In this document: positions 28,184 to 41,403 of the stretch, piece after piece
Layout: each line of letters starts with the position of its first letter
Numbering within the stretch: position 1 is the stretch's first letter
Source: Halobacteriota archaeon
GTDB lineage: Archaea; Halobacteriota; Syntropharchaeia; DAOWMC01
Direction: 5' to 3'
Assembly (NCBI GenBank): GCA_034190245.1
Contig: JAXHTJ010000001.1
Location: forward strand, 7,597 to 71,596
DNA length: 64,000 bases
The notes under the pieces: generated by a model
What the model was told of the DNA's origin: nothing
Database searches by the model: none
What the model saw: only the letters and a program-made list of their open reading frames with translations
Made by a program: the position numbers and the translations under genes

Positions 28184-29365
28184 ATGAGAGGAGTTTCAAT
28201 AGTTGCCGTCGGGATGACTGAGTTCAGGCATAGGCCAGAGTCATTCATGGACATAGGTGCTGATGGGATCGCAGAAGTATTTAAAGACTCGGATCTTAAG
28301 AATCTGGACATGAATGATATGGAAGCAGCATACTGCGGCACGATGGGTGGAGGCCCTCAAGCTGGCCAGAGAATCCTGGCAAGGTTGAAGAGCAGGATGG
28401 AGGAGAAAGGACTGGAACCACAGGAAGGCTTAACAGGGATTCCTGTCTCAAACTGGGAGAATCAGTGTACAAGTGGAACATGCGCTTTCGATGCTGGTTA
28501 TCGTGATATAGCTGCCGGGTTCCATGATATTGTACTGGCGTTCGGTGCCGAAAAACTCGGAAAAGGTTCATTATCTATGGGTGCTGGTGGAGGACTTTCA
28601 ACGGCAAAATTCAGAGGACCACCTCCGGTTCCAACGATGTTTGCCGGAAATGCAAAGCGTCACATGAAGAAATTCGATACAAAGAGAGAGCATCTTGCGA
28701 TGGTCGCTGTAAAGTCGAAGGAATATGCAGCCAGGAACCCAAATGCACAGTACAGAAACAGGATAACACTGGATGAAGCTTTAAATGCGAAGATGATTGC
28801 AGATCCGTTATCTATGTACATGTGCTGTCCTACATCAACAGGAGGATCTGCCTGTATACTCGTCGCAAGCGATATAGCAAGGAAATACACCGAGACACCG
28901 GTAGAGATAGTATGCGGCACAAATAAAACGGCAAGAGCAGGAATTAGTGCGTTAGAGTCTGGTTGGGATCCAAATTTAAGAGCTGGTAGAGAAGCATACA
29001 GACTTGCAGGTATCGGTCCAGAGGATATTGATGTTGCTCAGGTACACGACTGCTTCGCAATAGCAGAGCTGATGCACTATGAGAGCTTCGGATGGTGCGA
29101 GATAGGAAAATGTGGCGAGTGGATTGAATCCGGAGGGCCATGCATGGGTGGTGAGCTACCTGTGAATACAGATGGTGGATTGATATCGAAGGGTCACCCA
29201 CTCGGTGCAACAGGCTTTGCCCAGATCTACGAGCTGACTCACCAGTTGCGAGGCGACGGTCATAATCAGGTTCCAGATGCAGAAATCGCATGGAAGCACA
29301 ATATGGGTGGTGGTGTTGGTGTCGGAATGACGTACATTGTCCACGTACTGAAAAGGGGAAGATAG
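28184..29365 (+). CDS. Thiolase-like protein (SCP-x-type thiolase family), paralog 1
   Basis: Thiolase fold with an N-terminal active-site Cys region (NQCTSGTCAF) and a C-terminal …NTDGGLISKGHPLGATG… motif. Confidence 0.7.
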   Translation: MRGVSIVAVGMTEFRHRPESFMDIGADGIAEVFKDSDLKNLDMNDMEAAYCGTMGGGPQAGQRILARLKSRMEEKGLEPQEGLTGIPVSNWENQCTSGTCAFDAGYRDIAAGFHDIVLAFGAEKLGKGSLSMGAGGGLSTAKFRGPPPVPTMFAGNAKRHMKKFDTKREHLAMVAVKSKEYAARNPNAQYRNRITLDEALNAKMIADPLSMYMCCPTSTGGSACILVASDIARKYTETPVEIVCGTNKTARAGISALESGWDPNLRAGREAYRLAGIGPEDIDVAQVHDCFAIAELMHYESFGWCEIGKCGEWIESGGPCMGGELPVNTDGGLISKGHPLGATGFAQIYELTHQLRGDGHNQVPDAEIAWKHNMGGGVGVGMTYIVHVLKRGR

Positions 29366-29373
29366 GTGTCAAA

Positions 29374-30582
29374 ATGAGAGATGTTGCAATTATTGGTGTT
29401 GGTAGAACAGAATTTATTATAAGCGATGAATTCTCAAGCGGTATGGGTGCCATGACGGGCTTTGCCGGTCTTGGTGCAGAGGCAGTTAAAAAGGCATTGA
29501 AGGAAGCTAAGAATCTCGAGAAGAAAGACATCGAAACCGTTTATTGTGGCAGGTCAAATCCGGTTACAAATGCTGGTCAAACGATTATGCAGAAGATGGA
29601 GATGTTGAGTGAAGGTTCCTTCAGTGTGGACAACGGAGTGACAAGTGGCACAACCGCGCTTCTGTCTGCATATCGTGATGTTGCTGCTGGAATGCGCAAT
29701 GTGGCGTTAGTCGTTGGTTTCGAGACAATGGCTCCCGGGCAGTTATACATCACTCCTGACGGACAGGGATGGAAGAACAGGGATTCTGATTCACCACCAA
29801 TTCCAAGGTCTTTAGCACAGCTTGCGAGAAGGCATATGAGTGAATACGGTACCACCAAGGAACAACTTGCGATGGTTACTGCGAAGAACCGCAAAAACGG
29901 TGCTCTAAATCCGAATGCATTGAATAAAGAAGAGGTTTCGGCAGATGATGTCCTGAACTCAAGGATGGTTGCAGAGCCCCTGACAGAACCGATGTGTTCT
30001 ATTCCGGCGAGTGGTGCTACTGCTGTTGTTATCTGCGATGAGAAGTCAGCAAGTTATTACACCTCACATCCAATTAAGATAGCCGGATTTGCTATGACAA
30101 CCGGAAAAGCCGGTCTTGGTCTTCTGGATTCTGCCTATGATCCGATTGTGAGGGCTGCAAGGGAAGCGTACAGGATGGTAGGCCCATTCTTCAGTGGAAA
30201 AGATGTCGATATCGCACAGGTGGATGACACAACTGCAATAAATGAGCTTATAGCTTATGAGGCGCTTGGTTTCTGTAATAAAGGCGAAGCCGGAAAGATG
30301 GTTGAGGACGGTGTCACCAATCTGGATGGAGCTCTTCCAGTAAATACAGACGGTGGAATGCTTGCCAATGGTCAACCACTCGGTGCCTGCGGACTGGCTC
30401 AAGTCTATGAGCTTGTTGAACAACTAAGAGGGAAGGCAAAGGACAGGCAAGTTAAAGATGACATCGAGTATGCTGTTCAGTACAACGGTGGAAGCTTCGG
30501 TAGCGGTTTCTGCGGTGGTATAGGGGGAAGAGGCTTTGGAACCGGAGGCTCTTACATAGTCAACGTCTTTACGAAAGTCTAA
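29374..30582 (+). CDS. Thiolase-like protein (SCP-x-type thiolase family), paralog 2
   Basis: MRDVAIIGVGRTEF… …NTDGGMLANGQPLGACG…. The ATG at 29374 follows an aaggggaag RBS-like element. Confidence 0.7.
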   Translation: MRDVAIIGVGRTEFIISDEFSSGMGAMTGFAGLGAEAVKKALKEAKNLEKKDIETVYCGRSNPVTNAGQTIMQKMEMLSEGSFSVDNGVTSGTTALLSAYRDVAAGMRNVALVVGFETMAPGQLYITPDGQGWKNRDSDSPPIPRSLAQLARRHMSEYGTTKEQLAMVTAKNRKNGALNPNALNKEEVSADDVLNSRMVAEPLTEPMCSIPASGATAVVICDEKSASYYTSHPIKIAGFAMTTGKAGLGLLDSAYDPIVRAAREAYRMVGPFFSGKDVDIAQVDDTTAINELIAYEALGFCNKGEAGKMVEDGVTNLDGALPVNTDGGMLANGQPLGACGLAQVYELVEQLRGKAKDRQVKDDIEYAVQYNGGSFGSGFCGGIGGRGFGTGGSYIVNVFTKV

Positions 30583-33157: not shown

Positions 33158-34045
33158 TCATTGATTGACTATTGAAACAAATATCTCCTCAAGAGGGGAC
33201 TCATCGGTCTTGATGTCAATTATCTTTCCGCTATTTTCGGTTATCAATTTTGTAATTTGATTGACCTCTTCGACACTACTCGTTCTTTTCAGATAGTGGT
33301 CCCCAATTCGTTCGAGATCCCTATCCAACCCACCATTTCCACCGTTCAGATCGAATTCAAGGAGATATTCTCTTCGTCCAAAATCCCTCTTTAACTCATC
33401 TATACTGCCCGATGCCACTTCATTACCGTTACTGATGATCAGCACCTTATCACATATCGATTCTACCTGGTACAGGTTATGTGCGCTGAATAATATGGTC
33501 TTACCCTGTGCCTTCAGATCCTTGATGAACTTGACCACATACATGGAAGTCATTGGATCGAGTCCGGATGTCGGTTCATCGTATATAAGGACATCAGGGT
33601 CGTTGATCAAAGATCTGGCTATTATGATCTTCCTCTTCATCCCTTTCGAACAGTCGCCTATCTTCTTATAATCCGCAGAGAGGTTTAAAGAGGAGAGTAG
33701 TCTTTCGATTCGATCATCAGCCACCTTCCTATCCAGATCGAAGATCTCTGAGAAGAAGTGCAGATAGTCCCGCACGTACATACTCTCGTACAATGGAGAG
33801 TCCTCTGGAACAAAACCTATCAAGCTCTTGATCTCGAGTTCGTTCTTTGTCATATCATAGCCTGAAATTGAGATACTCCCTTCGGTCGGTTTGATCAGCC
33901 CACAGCACATCTTGAGTATTGTGGTCTTTCCGGCACCGTTGGGTCCAACAATGCCGAATATTTCCCCCTCACCAATATCAAAGGTTATATCGTTTACAGC
34001 AGTGAAGTCACCGTATCTTTTTATGAGGTCTACAGATTGAATCAC
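33158..34045 (-). CDS. ABC transporter ATP-binding protein
   Basis: Walker A GPNGAGKTT, LSGG-like signature and Walker B LIYDEPTSGLD. Confidence 0.8.
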   Translation of the reverse strand: MIQSVDLIKRYGDFTAVNDITFDIGEGEIFGIVGPNGAGKTTILKMCCGLIKPTEGSISISGYDMTKNELEIKSLIGFVPEDSPLYESMYVRDYLHFFSEIFDLDRKVADDRIERLLSSLNLSADYKKIGDCSKGMKRKIIIARSLINDPDVLIYDEPTSGLDPMTSMYVVKFIKDLKAQGKTILFSAHNLYQVESICDKVLIISNGNEVASGSIDELKRDFGRREYLLEFDLNGGNGGLDRDLERIGDHYLKRTSSVEEVNQITKLITENSGKIIDIKTDESPLEEIFVSIVNQ

Positions 34046-34278
34046 TTAAAACAACCATACATATATTTATCTTCAGCCATTATATGCTTTGTTCTCACAC
34101 GGGGAAGGCTAGATAGATTATAGTAAAGAGTAGAGCCACCATAACCACCAGAATCAGGAGTATCTCTTCTTCGCTTTGCATCGGTATATTCAAGTCAACT
34201 TAAAGGTTCTTTAATATTTATTAAGAGCAGGATATAAAGAAGAAAGATAACGATCCCTGCTTCAGTATGGTGAGAAGA

Positions 34279-34434
34279 ATGCCAAAGTGTAATATGTGTG
34301 GAGAAACATTCGATGTGGAAACGGCGCCGGGGGCAATATTATTTGCTCCGCCAGAACGAGTGGACATGGCATGTCCTGTAATGAAGTATCACATCTGCAG
34401 GAAGTGTTTCGATGGACTGACTCTGCTTGATTGA
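34279..34434 (+). CDS. Small zinc-ribbon protein (51 aa, CxxC…CxxC)
   Basis: MPKCNMCGETFDVETAPGAILFAPPERVDMACPVMKYHICRKCFDGLTLLD, with a GGTGA RBS 6 nt upstream. It is shorter than the track threshold. Confidence 0.3.
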   Translation: MPKCNMCGETFDVETAPGAILFAPPERVDMACPVMKYHICRKCFDGLTLLD

Positions 34435-34594
34435 TTGGGGAGCCTGCTGGGTAAATCTTGCATTTCCTTTCAACCATTAATAATTAATATATTTTTATCA
34501 TAATATTGGCCATTTTAATGATAAAACGATAGATTAATATACTTTAAAGTAGCATTTTCTTACTATAAGAGGTGAAAACACAGGAGTAGCAATT

Positions 34595-35395
34595 ATGGAG
34601 GAGAGTTTGGATATAATACTTGGACGAGGACATTCCCACAAACACAATTCTAAGAGTTCGGTGCAGTCCCCATCAGTAACTGTGGAATCAGCTACCTCAC
34701 CCATCAAATCAACCGGAATCAATTTTCTTGATAATGAGTTGAGTGGAGGTCTGCCGGCTGGTACGGTCGTTTATTTCTATGCAGATGCCGATGAGACTAC
34801 ATCAGAAGTCTTTCTTCATCATTTTTCGTCTGTCAGAAAAACATATTACTTTACCACAGTGAGACGCCCAAAATACATCTCTCAAAATATCACAGATCTG
34901 GGCCTTGATACTGAAAACATCAACTTTATAGATGTATACAGTCAGTATTATCTGAATAAATTCGGAGATATGATCGATAACGTTGGTAACGAATTTGTAG
35001 ACAAAGATATCTTGGACTTCACGGAGTACCAATTGAAGAATATCCGGGCCCAAGATGAGAAAGACTTTAACATCATCATTGACACGTTCTCGTTCTATCT
35101 GGGTTTGAATGTGAACTTTGGTAATATTCTGAGGCTTACAAACCTCATTTATGAGATAACGAAGGAGACGGAATCCATCTCGTATCTTTATGTCCTAAAC
35201 GATTACGATAAACCAGAAAACAAAGTAATGAATCTGTGTGATGCAGTATTTGATGTTACATCGGATAGGATTGGCGATAATATATACAGTAAACTCTCCA
35301 TTCCAAAGATGAGAGGAAAAACAGAAGTCAACGATCTTATCAAATTCAAAGTAGCCAGTGGTATACAGATAGATACGACTAGAGACATAGCTTAG
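34595..35395 (+). CDS. KaiC/RecA-superfamily ATPase-like protein with degenerate Walker A (probably catalytically inactive)
   Basis: GINFLDNELSGGLPAGTVVYFYADADETTSEVF aligns to the KaiC GIpGLDelLgGGlprGsvvlvsGppGtGKTtfalqF segment but lacks GxxGxGKT. A Walker-B-like IIIDTFS and a C-terminal KMRGKTEVNDLIKFKVASGIQID are present. Confidence 0.55.
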   Translation: MEESLDIILGRGHSHKHNSKSSVQSPSVTVESATSPIKSTGINFLDNELSGGLPAGTVVYFYADADETTSEVFLHHFSSVRKTYYFTTVRRPKYISQNITDLGLDTENINFIDVYSQYYLNKFGDMIDNVGNEFVDKDILDFTEYQLKNIRAQDEKDFNIIIDTFSFYLGLNVNFGNILRLTNLIYEITKETESISYLYVLNDYDKPENKVMNLCDAVFDVTSDRIGDNIYSKLSIPKMRGKTEVNDLIKFKVASGIQIDTTRDIA

Positions 35396-35453
35396 AAATT
35401 CACCACCATATTATGATTAAATAGTAAAAAAAGATGTATTGGAGGTTGATGAT

Positions 35454-35726
35454 ATGAATTCAGGTTCGAATGGTTTTGTGGCTGTTGTTTTTGTCCTGAT
35501 TATGGCCGTGGCGATGTTTTCCATTGCTGCTCCTGCGATGATACAGGAACCTTTAACTCCAGACACTTTATTTGGATCACCAACACCGACACCCGAAGAA
35601 ACAGCACCATCAGTAGGAGAGGAACCATTAGTTATAATGTGGGTAGGGGTGATTGTTATGATAATTTTGACTGCCATAGGCTGTGGAATCCTCTTAGTGA
35701 TTGCAGGGAGTGTGAGAGAATATTGA
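35454..35726 (+). CDS. Small membrane protein (2 TM) with Pro/Thr-rich linker
   Basis: ATG at 35454 preceded by a GGAGGT RBS. Two hydrophobic helices flank a PTPTPEETAP segment. Confidence 0.4.
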   Translation: MNSGSNGFVAVVFVLIMAVAMFSIAAPAMIQEPLTPDTLFGSPTPTPEETAPSVGEEPLVIMWVGVIVMIILTAIGCGILLVIAGSVREY

Positions 35727-35761: not shown

Positions 35762-36694
35762 TTATTCGACTCTCTCTCGCAATGCCGCCACTATCATGGG
35801 AAGGGCGATTGTTGCATCGGCATAAACGGTGACAGCGCGAGCTTCTTCTTTTACCTTTGTCCAGGATTTCGCCTCATCCGGTGTTGCCCCGGAGAGTCCT
35901 CCTGAATCAGGTCGATCGGTCGTTATCTGGATGAAGTGGTCAAAACCCTCTTTCATGCTCACAAGCATCGACTGGAGTATGTAGTTTTTGGGCACGCCAC
36001 CCCCAAGTATTATCACACCGGTCTTTTTAGCATTATAACAGATGTCAATCAATTCAGAGAGATCATCGAATGTGTCCACGCTCAGCTTTTGCGTCTGTTT
36101 GTAAAGCCATACGTTGAGTCCGATTATCGAGTCAGAAATAGCCGGACAGAATACCGGAACGTCGCAGTCAACGGCACTTCTGAGAATCGAATCCGGGTCA
36201 TCTATGCTCTGACCAATAACAGATATGAACTCACGTATTGTGAGCTTGCGGTCAATGTCTTCCAGAACGCCCATCATATGATCTTCCAATACCGTGAAAT
36301 GCTCTTCCGGTAGAAAAACATCGAATATTCTATTTATTTTCTGATCTCTCAAGATGAGATCATCAGCCTTCTCACTGCCCTTGTAATGATGACCCCCAAG
36401 CGATTCAATCATATCATGAACGAGATTTGCGCCGGTGGTTACCAGTACATCGATGTAGCCATCTCTTATCATATCGCTTATGATCTGTCTCATCCCGGCT
36501 GGAACGAGAGCTCCGGCAAGCCCAAAGAATTTAGTAGCCCCATCTTCCACCATACCCTCATATATGTCCACAGCTTCTGCAATTCTTCCGGCACCAAGTC
36601 CACAACCATCTAAAGCTGAGACGAGCTCATTCGCACTCATGCCAGAGACGATTTTTGCTTGCTTTATCTCTTGAAAGGGAATTTTGGAGTTCAT
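35762..36694 (-). CDS. dys: Deoxyhypusine synthase
   Basis: 310 aa of the DHS family (…GGGVPKNYILQS…). It is the archaeal eIF5A-modification enzyme. Confidence 0.8.
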   Translation of the reverse strand: MNSKIPFQEIKQAKIVSGMSANELVSALDGCGLGAGRIAEAVDIYEGMVEDGATKFFGLAGALVPAGMRQIISDMIRDGYIDVLVTTGANLVHDMIESLGGHHYKGSEKADDLILRDQKINRIFDVFLPEEHFTVLEDHMMGVLEDIDRKLTIREFISVIGQSIDDPDSILRSAVDCDVPVFCPAISDSIIGLNVWLYKQTQKLSVDTFDDLSELIDICYNAKKTGVIILGGGVPKNYILQSMLVSMKEGFDHFIQITTDRPDSGGLSGATPDEAKSWTKVKEEARAVTVYADATIALPMIVAALRERVE

Positions 36695-37999: not shown

Positions 38000-38565
38000 G
38001 GCTATCAAAAGCTTTATATAGGTTTAATCTCAATGTTAACGTTGTCATGATGAAAGCTTGCAGGATGACAGGAGAAGAACTCCGACATGACAGGCACACG
38101 GTGTCACTCTTAACAGATCACATGGTTATTACTCCAAAATATAGGGGTAAAATATTAACTGACGATGTTGCTATGGTTTGTGAAGGTCTTATCAGGAAGA
38201 CATGCAGGGAGATGGATATTGAGATAATTGATATGGCAATCAATACTGATCATGTTCATCTGTTTATAAAGTATCCGCCAAAGTATTCTGTTAGCTTTAT
38301 CGCAAAGAAGATCAAAGGCAGGACAAGCAGAATACTGAGGCAGCACTTCCCACATTTGAAAGAATGGTGTCCTGACCATTTATGGGCACCGGGTTGTTTT
38401 CATGGTTCAGTAGGCCATGGTTGGGAGTGGTGGAAAATTATATCTTAACTCAGGTTCATTCACCTAAACAAGGGAAAAGTATATAAAATGGCTGGACACC
38501 TCCAGCCTGAGAGGTGTCCGATTTTCAATCGGACTAAAGGGGTGTATAAGCACCCCTTGTTTTGA
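38000..38565 (+). mobile_element. IS200/IS605-family insertion sequence (tnpA only); ends approximate
   Basis: Y1/HUH transposase ORF followed by two subterminal hairpins (38495-38521 and 38538-38562). The left boundary is not resolved. Confidence 0.5.
38047..38448 (+). CDS. tnpA: IS200/IS605 family transposase TnpA (HUH Y1)
   Basis: 133 aa with an HVHLF (HUH) motif. The C-terminal …LWAPGCFHGSVG… matches the IS200 LWSPSYFxGSVG pattern. Confidence 0.8.
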   Translation: MMKACRMTGEELRHDRHTVSLLTDHMVITPKYRGKILTDDVAMVCEGLIRKTCREMDIEIIDMAINTDHVHLFIKYPPKYSVSFIAKKIKGRTSRILRQHFPHLKEWCPDHLWAPGCFHGSVGHGWEWWKIIS

Positions 38566-38684
38566 TTAACCTTTTATTTAAAAGGTTACTAACAAGCCTG
38601 GTACCTATAAGTACGGGGTATAGTGACTTAATACAGGATATTTTCATGTACTATAAAATGAGTATATGTATGGTTGTGTCTGTT

Positions 38685-40658
38685 ATGTTTGGAGATTCAA
38701 GATATGTTGTTAGATTAGCTATTATAATACTTCTGCTAACTCTTTTCATTGGTACAGCATCCGCTGAGATATGGTATGTTGATGATGATAGTGGTGCGGA
38801 TTTTACAAAGATACAGGATGCGATTGATGCTGCGGTTGCAGGCGATACGATTATTGTAAAAGATGGTACGTATCATGAGAATGTGGATGTGTATGAGCGT
38901 TTAATAATACGATCTGAGAATGGGTCTGTATCGACAACTGTTATTGCATCAAATCCTGAAGATCATGTTTTCGGAGTATTTGGAAATTATGTGAATATCA
39001 GTGGGTTTACGATAGAAGGGGCAACTGGATCATGGATAGCCGGGATTTATCTCAAGGTTGCGTATGACTGCAATATTTCGGGTAACATCGCATCGAACAA
39101 CAGCTACGGCATCTACCTAGATCGTTTTTCAGGTAACAACAGACTTGTGAGCAACATCGTGAGTGGAAACCACAACGGTATCCGCCTGTATTCTTCATAC
39201 AACAACACACTCACGGGCAATATGATGTTGGATAATACCCACAGTCTTGGTGTTTATAGTCCTAATCTTTATGATTATTATGGTTCCAGTTATGGCTCCA
39301 GTCTCCCTGACTACACTCAAAACATAGACAACACAAACAAAGTAAATGGAAAACCGGTCTATTACTTGGTTGATAAGCAAGATCAGGTAATATCTGACGA
39401 TGCTGGCTACGTGGGAGTTGTGAATTCCACAAACATTACAGTGAAAGATTTAACGTTAACAGGCAATCGTCAAGGAGTGCTTTTTGTTTACACAAATAAT
39501 TCAAAGATAGAGAATGTGAATGTATCGAACAACCACAACGGCATCTACCTAGAATCTTCAAGCAACAACACACTCACGGGCAACATCGTGAAGGGCAACA
39601 ACCACAACGGCATCTACCTAGAATCTTCAAGCAACAACACACTCACGGGCAACATCGCGAATTCGAACAACGGCGACGGCATCTACCTGTTTAAATCAAA
39701 AAACAACTCACTTGTGAACAACACCGCGAATTCGAACAATAACTACGGCATCCACCTGTGGAATTCAAGAAACAGTACACTTTTGGAAAACAATATGTCG
39801 GGGAATGGCTACAACCTTTATGTTTTAGGTTCAATTCTTTGTGATTATTATGGTTCCAGTTATGGTTCCATTCTTCTTGGCTACACTCAAAACATAGACA
39901 ACACAAACAAAGTAAATGGAAAACAGGTCTATTACTTGGTTGATAAGCAAGATCAGGTAATACCTGACGATGCTGGCTATGTTGGAGTTGTGAATTCCAC
40001 AAACATTATAGTGAAAAATTTAACGTTAACAGGCAATCGTCAAGGAGTGCTTTTTGTTTACACAAATAATTCAAAGATAGAGAATGTGAATGTATCGAAC
40101 AACCACAACGGCATCTACCTAGAATCTTCGAGCAACAACACACTCATGAACAACACCGCGAAGGGCAACAACTGCGGCATCATGCTGCGGTATTCAATCA
40201 ACAACACAATAGAGGGCAACAATGCAACGAACAACAACTACGGCATCTATCTGGAAAATTCAAGAAACAACACAATCTACAACAACTACTTCAACAACAC
40301 AAAAAATGCCTTTGATATCAAAAACAACATCTGGAACATCACAAAAACAGCAGGAACAAATATAATCGGTGGGCCTTACTTAGGTGGAAATTACTGGTCG
40401 TCAGACTATAAAGGAGCTGATACTGATGGAGACGGCTTGGGTGATACATTGTTCCCGCACAACTCTTCAGGATTAATAACGAACTCCGGAGATTATCACC
40501 CGCTGATGAAGACGTGGATACCAACTCCAACACCTACTCCAACCCCAACATCAACTTCAACGCCATCCACACCCGATGAGGAACAACCCGGATTCGAAGC
40601 AATATTCGCAATCATTGGACTTTTGGTGATAGCATATCTTGTGAGAAGAAGAAAATAA
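38685..40658 (+). CDS. Secreted right-handed parallel beta-helix repeat protein (NosD/pectate-lyase-like) with PGF-CTERM archaeosortase sorting signal
   Basis: Signal peptide MFGDSRYVVRLAIIILLLTLFIGTASA. Many NxxHNGIYLxxSxNNTLTGN PbH1-like repeats. C-terminus PTPTPTPTPTSTSTPSTPDEEQPGFEAIFAIIGLLVIAYLVRRRK. Confidence 0.7.
   Translation: MFGDSRYVVRLAIIILLLTLFIGTASAEIWYVDDDSGADFTKIQDAIDAAVAGDTIIVKDGTYHENVDVYERLIIRSENGSVSTTVIASNPEDHVFGVFGNYVNISGFTIEGATGSWIAGIYLKVAYDCNISGNIASNNSYGIYLDRFSGNNRLVSNIVSGNHNGIRLYSSYNNTLTGNMMLDNTHSLGVYSPNLYDYYGSSYGSSLPDYTQNIDNTNKVNGKPVYYLVDKQDQVISDDAGYVGVVNSTNITVKDLTLTGNRQGVLFVYTNNSKIENVNVSNNHNGIYLESSSNNTLTGNIVKGNNHNGIYLESSSNNTLTGNIANSNNGDGIYLFKSKNNSLVNNTANSNNNYGIHLWNSRNSTLLENNMSGNGYNLYVLGSILCDYYGSSYGSILLGYTQNIDNTNKVNGKQVYYLVDKQDQVIPDDAGYVGVVNSTNIIVKNLTLTGNRQGVLFVYTNNSKIENVNVSNNHNGIYLESSSNNTLMNNTAKGNNCGIMLRYSINNTIEGNNATNNNYGIYLENSRNNTIYNNYFNNTKNAFDIKNNIWNITKTAGTNIIGGPYLGGNYWSSDYKGADTDGDGLGDTLFPHNSSGLITNSGDYHPLMKTWIPTPTPTPTPTSTSTPSTPDEEQPGFEAIFAIIGLLVIAYLVRRRK
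39272..40147 (+). repeat. Intragenic direct duplication of about 305 bp at about 95% identity (39272-39577 vs 39842-40147), plus a perfect 57-bp tandem duplication (39531-39587 / 39600-39656)
   Basis: Direct comparison of the two stretches; the copies differ by only a handful of substitutions. Confidence 0.7.
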
Positions 40659-40754
40659 AAACAAATACCCAACCAACCGCCCCGTGGATGCACCCGAATT
40701 CATTCGGGTGTGGCGTGGATGGGGCTTAAACACTTTCACCACACTTACTCAACC

Positions 40755-40762
40755 TTTATATG
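40755..40762 (+). promoter_or_regulatory. TATA-box-like element (tttatatg) about 40 bp upstream of the Panacea-domain gene
   Basis: AT-rich octamer at the appropriate distance for an archaeal promoter. Confidence 0.2.
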
Positions 40763-40800
40763 TAATTCATACCTACATATTATTAGAAACTGTGATATAT

Positions 40801-41403
40801 ATGATTCATTTTAAAGGAATTGATAATAAAAAATTAAGGGATGTTATTGTGTATTTTACCTTTAAAACGAATTATTTGACCTTAATACGTCTTATAAAAT
40901 TGGTTTATATTGCAGAAATCTATTCTATAAAAAAATTTGGCAGAAGATTGACGGAGGTAGACTTTCTCAACTATCACTATGGCCCTTGGAGTTCTGAGAT
41001 TAACTCTATAGGAGAGATAATATCTGGTGATGATATCTTAATCGAGTTTGATAGAACTCCTCAAGGTCATGATGCTTCTTTCTTTAAACCGAATGTAGAT
41101 GAACCTGCTATCAACCTTTCTGAAGAAGATATATCTTTACTAGATGATGTCATAAATGAATGGGGATTCAAAAAGACTGAGGAAATAATCACATTTGTAA
41201 AATCTACTTCTTCGTATAAGAATTCTGGATTTGGAGAATTGATAAATTTCGATGAATATATCGATGAGTGTAGATCTGCGCTGGTTGAGAGTGATGATAA
41301 AATTCTTTCTGGTGTCCATGAGGCAATAGAAGAATACAAAAAAGGCCTTGGAAAAACCTTTGAAACAAAAGATGAGCTCTTAAGACATCTTCAAAGTTTG
41401 TAG
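40801..41403 (+). CDS. Panacea (DUF4065)-domain protein, putative PanA-type antitoxin
   Basis: …TNYLTLIRLIKLVYIAEIYSIKKFGRRLTEVDFLNYHYGPWSSEI… matches the Panacea/SocA core (T.LKLqKLlYyA….G.pl….F.a…GP). The ATG at 40801 is preferred over the track's upstream extension. Confidence 0.55.
   Translation: MIHFKGIDNKKLRDVIVYFTFKTNYLTLIRLIKLVYIAEIYSIKKFGRRLTEVDFLNYHYGPWSSEINSIGEIISGDDILIEFDRTPQGHDASFFKPNVDEPAINLSEEDISLLDDVINEWGFKKTEEIITFVKSTSSYKNSGFGELINFDEYIDECRSALVESDDKILSGVHEAIEEYKKGLGKTFETKDELLRHLQSL

Follow-up and report, generated by a model that had tools for sequence, protein, structure and literature searches.

ArlH (FlaH) of the archaellum, a protein with a single domain of the KaiC/RecA fold, has a functional Walker A motif and binds ATP, and its nucleotide state and autophosphorylation govern its binding to the ATPase ArlI (that FlaH binds FlaI is from Chaudhury 2016, as cited in PMC4858521). 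It is the nearest characterised relative of the protein dealt with here, the 266-amino-acid (aa) product of a gene in a 64-kb stretch of contig JAXHTJ010000001.1 from a Halobacteriota archaeon; the whole stretch, 64,000 nucleotides (nt), is termed the window below. This protein belongs to the Pfam family DUF7125 (PF23442) and, judged by its motifs, is a KaiC-family pseudo-ATPase whose own nucleotide site is remodelled, as it is in the entire family. A 2016 census of archaeal type IV pili reports an association of proteins of the KaiC family with these loci, and for Archaeoglobus its text and supplement list KaiC-family proteins, including the 'inactivated' arCOG01175, beside a FlaI-like ATPase and TadC (PMC4858521). 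In a wider setting, KaiC-like ATPases have been proposed as hubs of archaeal regulatory networks (PMC10983859, citing Makarova 2017). Inactivated KaiC-like proteins, with their Pfam and arCOG entries, and a link to pilus loci are already known, no member having been studied experimentally, and the window gene is one further member of this catalogued, uncharacterised family. The name DUF7125 was not found in the literature searched, and papers on pilB4 make no mention of it.

34595..35395, + strand: DUF7125 gene, 266 aa, of predicted KaiC/ArlH fold and lacking a P-loop (Pfam DUF7125 match, alignments and AlphaFold model)

The protein reaches the DUF7125 model (207 positions; gathering threshold 29.1 bits) with 73.7 bits (E 1.5e-20), and a precomputed PF23442 match is present on all its close homologues. 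A search of 5.8 billion proteins yielded 165 homologues from the Methanosarcinales in the broad sense (Methanococcoides, Methanolobus, Methanomethylovorans, ANME-2 and Methanoperedens), and a profile search of 1.84 billion cluster representatives yielded 600 relatives, named DUF7125 members being from Syntropharchaeum, Methanocellales, ANME-1, Methanoperedens, Archaeoglobales and Halobacteria. The gene is a genuine member kept by purifying selection, with a ratio of non-synonymous to synonymous substitution rates (dN/dS) of 0.16 against its closest relative, 86% identical (locus L001 below). Compared with DUF7125 at large, the window protein falls in a longer, Methanosarcinales-type branch (about 230-300 aa), marked by a disordered N-terminus that varies and by an insertion of ~25 residues (YYLNKFGDMIDNVGNEFVD, at about 119-145), and it matches the Pfam model in two stretches, whereas a Haloferax member scores 167 bits and the haloarchaeal type of ~208 aa (PPASQSELLLYE) covers the model in full. 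Its layout is a disordered segment (residues 1-32), a RecA-type core (33-250) and an invariant tail, GIQIDTTRDIA. DUF7125 is probably the same family as arCOG01175 ('RecA-superfamily ATPase, inactivated'), matched by description, size and gene order alone: in the supplement of PMC4858521 all three, with a size of about 227-230 aa, agree with DUF7125, of which an Archaeoglobales metagenome-assembled genome (MAG) holds a member.

At the P-loop position (YFYADADETTSEVF) Walker A is replaced by YADADETTSE, and GxxxxGK[ST] is absent from every one of 84 aligned homologues (alignments of 21 and of 84 members) and from 132 of 133 distant representatives (top profile matches spanning the P-loop region), nearly all of which retain PKxRG and the DTSRDIA end. 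A loss common to every homologue examined goes far beyond what chance or error would produce, and ATP binding has presumably gone with it. The family consensus at the former P-loop is GSVVYxSADxKSMSEVFLYQF, most members having S-x-S-E where the window protein has T-T-S-E (...DETTSEVF...). In alignment with PH0284, GGPGTGKT stands opposite adaksmse, so that the Walker A Lys becomes Ser and the Thr an invariant Glu (E71), and the catalytic EE after strand 2 is opposite a variable residue (V89 in the window protein) and an invariant Arg (R90). Elsewhere the fold's signatures are kept. Invariant across the family are the N-terminal TGI..LD..L.GG.P motif, D163 at the end of a Walker-B-like strand (NIIID163), K238 and R240 within PKMRG (237-241), and the C-terminal GIQIDTxxDIA, of which GIQI occupies 256-259; the family-wide set to which the window protein conforms is TGI..LD..L.GG.P.GS, the S-x-S-E-type P-loop replacement, R.TYY.TT.R, hhhhD, PKxRG and a DTSRDIA C-terminus, and the degenerate P-loop, PKxRG and a DT[ST]xDIA end are common to it, the 84 homologues and the ~208-aa haloarchaeal type. 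The preliminary description of the stretch, made from its letters, had seen a KaiC-like ATPase along the length of the open reading frame (ORF), with the P-loop replaced and a Walker-B-like hhhhD and a C-terminal KMRG…GI left in place, and on each of these points it was right. A sequencing error or a pseudogene, as the source of the missing Walker A, was ruled out, the loss being family-wide and the gene under purifying selection.

The AlphaFold model built from the 84-sequence alignment (mean predicted local distance difference test, pLDDT, 80.4) is confident over residues 33-250, with low confidence for the N-terminal 32 residues and for the invariant C-terminal tail. It has a KaiC-type fold, and Foldseek places it with KaiC, FlaH 4yds, PH0284 and RecA, each at probability 1.00; the S. 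acidocaldarius FlaH structure (4yds) superimposes with a template-modelling score of 0.77 (target-normalised) at 21% identity. ArlH/FlaH counts as the nearest characterised family, with all scores far below cut-off, because NCBIfam FlaH is matched by 82/84 members, for which it is the best-scoring characterised family, and ArlH by 80/84, against 3/84, weakly, for RadA (sms) and a single member each for Rad51 and Dmc1. The best family member reaches only E 6.5e-14 with the ArlH/FlaH model, and the window protein scores 29.4 and 29.3 bits with NF052589 and NF004723, where the cut-offs are 215 and 194 bits. Size and single-domain build are also similar, and some DUF7125 genes adjoin a FlaI/PilB-type ATPase and a TadC/ArlJ-type platform just as arlH adjoins arlI and arlJ. 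However, ArlH depends on the nucleotide switch whose P-loop DUF7125 lacks, and the DUF7125-linked loci are of adhesive-pilus type (PilB3-like ATPase, DUF7287-7289 pilin-like proteins) with no arl genes near. With KaiC and KaiC-like proteins (PF06745; CirA, PH0284, SSO2452) the family has in common the fold, 'TGI.gLD..LgGGlP.G', the Walker B strand, KxRG and the terminal 'f.I...GI.v' strand. It differs in lacking Walker A, in a catalytic Glu pair that is unconserved, its second position being the invariant Arg, and in consisting of one domain with an extra invariant C-terminal tail. The window protein's own match to the Pfam KaiC model, over residues 39-259, is at 25.5 bits, just under the gathering threshold of 26.6; a precomputed PF06745 match is carried by many of its homologues.

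Gene neighbourhoods were compared over 80 Methanosarcinales-type reference-genome loci and 80 hypersaline metagenome loci, with all-against-all clustering of the neighbours. Pilus-type genes lie within 4 kb of DUF7125 in 14 of the 80 reference-genome loci, and the adjacency recurs in several lineages. On plasmid pHME505 of Haloferax mediterranei (among the haloarchaeal replicons matched in a tblastn search of annotated plasmids with a short-type member) a full-length DUF7125 gene, the 167-bit member, is directly 5′ of one for a 931-aa T2SSE/PilB3_C ATPase, followed by T2SSF (TadC) and DUF7287/DUF7288, and a Pilin_N pilin and a DUF7289/DUF7305 protein are encoded divergently upstream; on a Halobaculum plasmid a pilus locus is a few genes away. 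Two ANME-2 loci (L073, L075) have PilB3-like ATPase, TadC and DUF7125 on one strand. In two Methanoperedens loci (L088, L089) DUF7125 is the last of a co-directional series of DUF7287, DUF7288, a hypothetical gene, DUF7266, two DUF7289 genes and a TPR gene, DUF7305 being fused to the second DUF7289 in L088 and a separate gene in L089. Two further loci (L066, L078) have DUF7125 convergent with DUF7289-type pilin-like genes, L066 with DUF7266 also. The order reported for Archaeoglobus, inactivated ATPase, FlaI/PilB-like ATPase and TadC, is the order in Haloferax. As a separate matter, the TPR protein is a constant upstream partner of DUF7125 in Methanoperedens, in 27 of the 80 loci (L015, L024, L074, L088, L089 and ~20 more), with a pilin-like cluster (DUF7287/7288/7266/7289/7305) frequently lying ahead of it and PilB and TadC absent from the 10 kb around.

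Because the similarity to ArlH and the retained inter-subunit KxRG coincide with pilus adjacency in four arrangements and in distant lineages, the reading that we tentatively prefer, at a probability somewhat short of even, is that DUF7125 is a nucleotide-independent, ArlH-like accessory or regulatory subunit of PilB/TadC-type type IV pilus machinery. Its role would be structural or regulatory, with ATP neither bound nor hydrolysed in its own site. As ArlH (FlaH) docks on the archaellum ATPase ArlI, so DUF7125 might act on a PilB/TadC-type machine, dispensing with a nucleotide switch of its own; contact with PilB and assembly into an oligomeric ring would both be expected (the PKxRG motif of KaiC-type rings extends into the site of the adjoining subunit). 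A more elaborate version can be put forward, though it is distinctly unlikely in all its parts: DUF7125 as the ArlH counterpart so long missing from the adhesive type IV pili of euryarchaea, a constitutively 'locked' KaiC-fold ring whose nucleotide pocket would be filled by the invariant Glu/Arg pair and whose DTxxDIA tail would dock PilB3/PilB4-type ATPases, with, in the window lineage, a private 90-aa partner derived from a pilin-like N-terminal helix. We know of essentially no described accessory cytoplasmic components of archaeal adhesive pili. Were the pilus link true, DUF7125 would supply such pili with a nucleotide-independent ArlH counterpart, and would be a clean natural case of a KaiC-fold protein that keeps its ring-interface residues with its own ATP site filled in.

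Several observations weigh against this preference. Most DUF7125 members are not beside pilus genes, and no universal neighbour emerged from the clustering of either set of 80 loci. In the main haloarchaeal chromosomal group, where the neighbours are housekeeping genes, none of the 34 well-flanked loci (of 80 in the metagenome scan) has a pilus gene within 10 kb, because of which the reading was lowered from pilus 'component' to 'subset-supported'. The Methanosarcinaceae gene sits between genes for a DEAD/DUF5814 helicase and methylthioadenosine (MTA) phosphorylase, and the copies in the Archaeoglobales MAG and in Syntropharchaeum stand alone among housekeeping genes. The 14 pilus-linked loci are phylogenetically clustered, amounting to a handful of independent events. 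Nor does the 64-kb window hold any pilus, archaellum or KaiB gene: PilB/ArlI-type ATPases, TadC/ArlJ-type platforms and pilin-like proteins were all looked for there in vain, and there is no arl gene among the annotations at 22-46 kb. As in most members, the window gene is an independent transcription unit away from pilus core genes.

That DUF7125 usually stands alone among unrelated housekeeping genes is what a generic KaiC-type signalling scaffold would lead one to expect, i.e. a dead subunit pairing with an active KaiC-like paralogue or some other partner in an archaeal 'KaiC hub', with pili as one output among several. The retention of PKxRG and the Walker B Asp with the cis site dead would suit a hetero-oligomer to which DUF7125 donates trans-acting residues. 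The 2017 abstract by Makarova is also said to take in homologues whose ATPase domain is inactivated. A GvpD/KaiC-type ATPase and a response regulator are 4 kb away in Syntropharchaeum, and the upstream TPR protein of Methanoperedens is a typical adaptor. However, no examined locus has a KaiB-like, DEATH-like or other known partner of KaiC next to DUF7125, pilus genes and an ABC-2 transporter are the only specific contexts that recur, and sequence similarity is highest to ArlH/FlaH, above the multi-purpose KaiC_arch groups. A general scaffold is rather unlikely, but it is the main rival to the pilus reading. Nomenclature would suggest another role again, that of a recombination mediator of RadA-paralogue type, a Rad51/RadA-like structural protein without ATPase motifs that aids RadA filaments. 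At NCBI, members go under 'recombinase RecA' or 'RAD55 family ATPase' (the database entry identical to the 266-aa protein is 'recombinase RecA [Halobacteriota archaeon]'), and the closest solved sequences are PH0284 and SSO2452, which we take to be aRadC-type RadA paralogues. Eukaryotic Rad51 paralogues that lack ATPase motifs offer an analogy, e.g. the Csm2 and Psy3 subunits of the yeast Shu complex. These pseudo-ATPases resemble DUF7125 in having a RecA fold with the ATPase motifs lost and, by analogy, presumably in being structural partners of an active ATPase; they differ in belonging to another lineage, with sequence kinship at superfamily level only, and in the DNA-repair context that DUF7125 lacks. 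The names stem from the generic COG0467 label and are misleading for DUF7125 proteins, Walker A is missing, and RadA, Rad51 and Dmc1 are matched by very few members, against nearly all for FlaH. A plasmid copy in Salinibaculum does adjoin PCNA and is near Hjc, but over more than 160 loci no DNA-repair neighbour recurs. The Methanosarcinaceae helicase (DEAD, Helicase_C, DUF5814), beside an LSm gene, is of a type that is presumably RNA-associated. A recombination mediator is very improbable. That Salinibaculum copy (L087; NZ_CP129994.1, 502-517 kb), with TFIIB and A24 prepilin-peptidase-like genes also near, has a mixed context that fits neither the pilus nor the repair reading cleanly.

Two further proposals turn on the immediate neighbours of the gene in the window, where it lies between two minus-strand genes, those for an ABC transporter ATPase and for deoxyhypusine synthase (35762-36694).

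33158..34045, - strand: ABC-2-type transporter ATPase, divergent from DUF7125 (Pfam ABC_tran and a sub-threshold DrrA1-3_C match, 22.3 vs 27.4 bits)
34279..34434, + strand: zinc-ribbon mini-gene, 51 aa from ATG (55 aa from 34267), CxxC...C...CxxC
35454..35726, + strand: membrane ORF with two transmembrane helices, 90 aa from ATG (95 aa from TTG 35439)

An ABC ATPase and/or ABC-2 permeases adjoin DUF7125 in 11 of the 80 reference-genome loci, all of ANME-2 type, making this the second recurrent neighbour; the window ATPase, divergent and adjacent, clusters with those of the ANME-2-type loci (cluster c25), and in L088 ABC genes are directly 5′ of the pilin cluster that DUF7125 ends. DUF7125 might on these grounds be an accessory that regulates or scaffolds an ABC-2-type exporter and has no pilus role. 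We consider this very improbable. The 11 loci are closely related, so that the adjacency is likely inherited synteny, their orientation is convergent or divergent and not operonic, and in Halobacteria, Methanosarcinaceae, Archaeoglobales and Syntropharchaeum DUF7125 has no such neighbour. Though the ANME-2-type ATPase comes with two ABC-2 permeases, none is present in the 64-kb window, where the ATPase is possibly remnant synteny with no functional link implied. Less probable than any of the others is the model that drew attention to the region in the first place, with pseudo-ATPase, membrane protein and zinc-ribbon mini-protein as one unit, a membrane-anchored regulator with a zinc-finger partner. 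The preliminary description had delimited the three ORFs correctly. The membrane ORF begins 58 nt after the DUF7125 stop, with a strong GGAGG (35441-35445, 8 nt 5′ of ATG 35454) and no obvious terminator, so that the two are possibly co-transcribed; the block of DNA common to the window and L001 spans the promoter, DUF7125 and the start of the membrane ORF; substitutions in the first 18 codons of that ORF in L001 are coding-like (5 synonymous, 2 non-synonymous); and the N-terminal helix of the 90-aa protein is the best, if weak, window match to a custom hidden Markov model of the DUF7289-type pilin N-terminus (10.5 bits, E 0.012, top of 694 window ORFs, a mostly hydrophobic match). However, a search of the 80 reference-genome loci for the small ORFs (ORF scans, tblastn and DNA alignments) found the zinc-ribbon ORF upstream in none, and a trace of the membrane ORF in one only, L001, where its frame shifts after about those 18 codons and it is then truncated by an oppositely oriented IS66-type transposase gene. 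The next relatives, 66% identical, carry a major facilitator superfamily (MFS) transporter at that position. The two small ORFs are not conserved partners of DUF7125, and the trio, largely refuted by this lack of conservation, is not a conserved system.

The 90-aa form of the membrane ORF is the version annotated in the source MAG (P0122), and, as first described, its product is a two-helix membrane protein with a strong ribosome-binding site: two strongly hydrophobic helices, at about residues 3-32 and 53-89, are joined by a Pro/Thr-rich linker. Among the 5.8 billion proteins it matches only itself. It is not a pilin by Pfam, with no match to Pilin_N (PF07790), and it departs from what is expected of one, a class III signal peptide in which a charged residue and Gly/Ala precede the hydrophobic helix, in having no basic residue at its N-terminus (MNSGSNG|F); its second, C-terminal transmembrane helix is also atypical. 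In L001 the truncating transposase is represented by its C-terminus (EPTNNRAERALRE motif; 1859-2254, - strand). That contig, of 2.3 kb, has both ends repeating each other and carries a serpin fragment (3-494, + strand) where the window has the upstream ABC ATPase. The sister MAG concerned (MAG25_tar_biofilm) has two DUF7125 paralogues, L001 and L003, 86% and 66% identical to the window protein, or else is a mixed bin; the L003 copy is followed by an MFS transporter gene.

The zinc-ribbon ORF, judged by its pattern of substitution, is a real small gene independent of DUF7125. It has a single homologue, P0121, at 78% aa identity, the two being the only members among the 5.8 billion proteins. All five of C4, C7, C32, C40 and C43 are kept, and there are 20 synonymous and 11 non-synonymous codon changes (dN/dS ~0.05, a sign of strong purifying selection), homology ending at the ORF borders. 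The 51-aa form agrees with P0121 and has GGTGA 6 nt 5′ of ATG 34279. The P0121 gene belongs to a separate contig of the sister MAG and precedes a PF04199 cyclase gene by 5 nt. There was no curated family match for the 51-aa protein, and a search for mobile-element repeats around the ORF gave nothing convincing. The gene is seemingly unannotated in the source MAG, no identical database protein being found.

The gap in which this ORF lies (34046-34594) was described as 550 bp, AT-rich, and containing a CxxC…CxxC ORF with a good ribosome-binding site. Its length (549 bp), the CxxC pairs and the GGTGA stand, but as a whole it is only moderately AT-rich (36.8% GC; whole window, 42.9%): GC is 46.8% within the zinc-ribbon ORF and 28.7% in the 160 bp from there to the start of DUF7125. 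Rfam gave no credible non-coding RNA in the gap, two sub-threshold matches being taken as chance. DNA homology to L001 (blastn, 85% identity, 34483-35527) begins 112 nt 5′ of the DUF7125 start codon, and the homologous block takes in a probable promoter and leader as well as the DUF7125 gene, and runs into the opening codons of the membrane ORF. The elements upstream of the start are these.

34483..34594, + strand: conserved block (blastn against L001), likely promoter and 5′ leader of DUF7125
34488-34531: AT-rich near-palindrome, 22-nt arms, 77% complementary, no spacer, inside the block conserved with the closest relative
34543-34548 (TTTAAA) and 34564-34569 (TATAAG): TATA-like elements upstream of DUF7125
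34583-34586: Shine-Dalgarno sequence GGAG, 5′ of the 266-aa gene

Comparison with the archaeal TATA-box consensus makes 34483-34594 a likely promoter, and the near-palindrome within it a candidate regulator-binding site for DUF7125.

Other genes at 22-46 kb of the window are housekeeping or miscellaneous: MMPL, CARDB, phosphoribosyltransferase, thiolases, aminotransferase, DUF1614, the ABC ATPase, deoxyhypusine synthase, Sir2, an IS200-type transposase, a NosD/PGF-CTERM surface protein, a Panacea-domain protein, FAD oxidase, RNase P p30 and MgtE. Downstream of the ABC ATPase is the gene for the DUF1614 membrane protein, and just 5′ of the ATPase start codon is a 32-aa hydrophobic mini-ORF (34095-34193, - strand; MNIPMQSEEEILLILVVMVALLFTIIYLAFPV), either a small membrane peptide or chance. 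An IS200-like Y1 transposase gene (38047-38448, + strand) is followed by that for the NosD/beta-helix PGF-CTERM-anchored surface protein (38562-40658, + strand) and then by one for a SocA/Panacea-domain protein (40684-41403, + strand), possibly antitoxin-like. Two thiolase-like genes (28184-29365 and 29290-30582, both + strand) seem to overlap, out of frame with each other, by ~75 nt, but the second probably begins further downstream.

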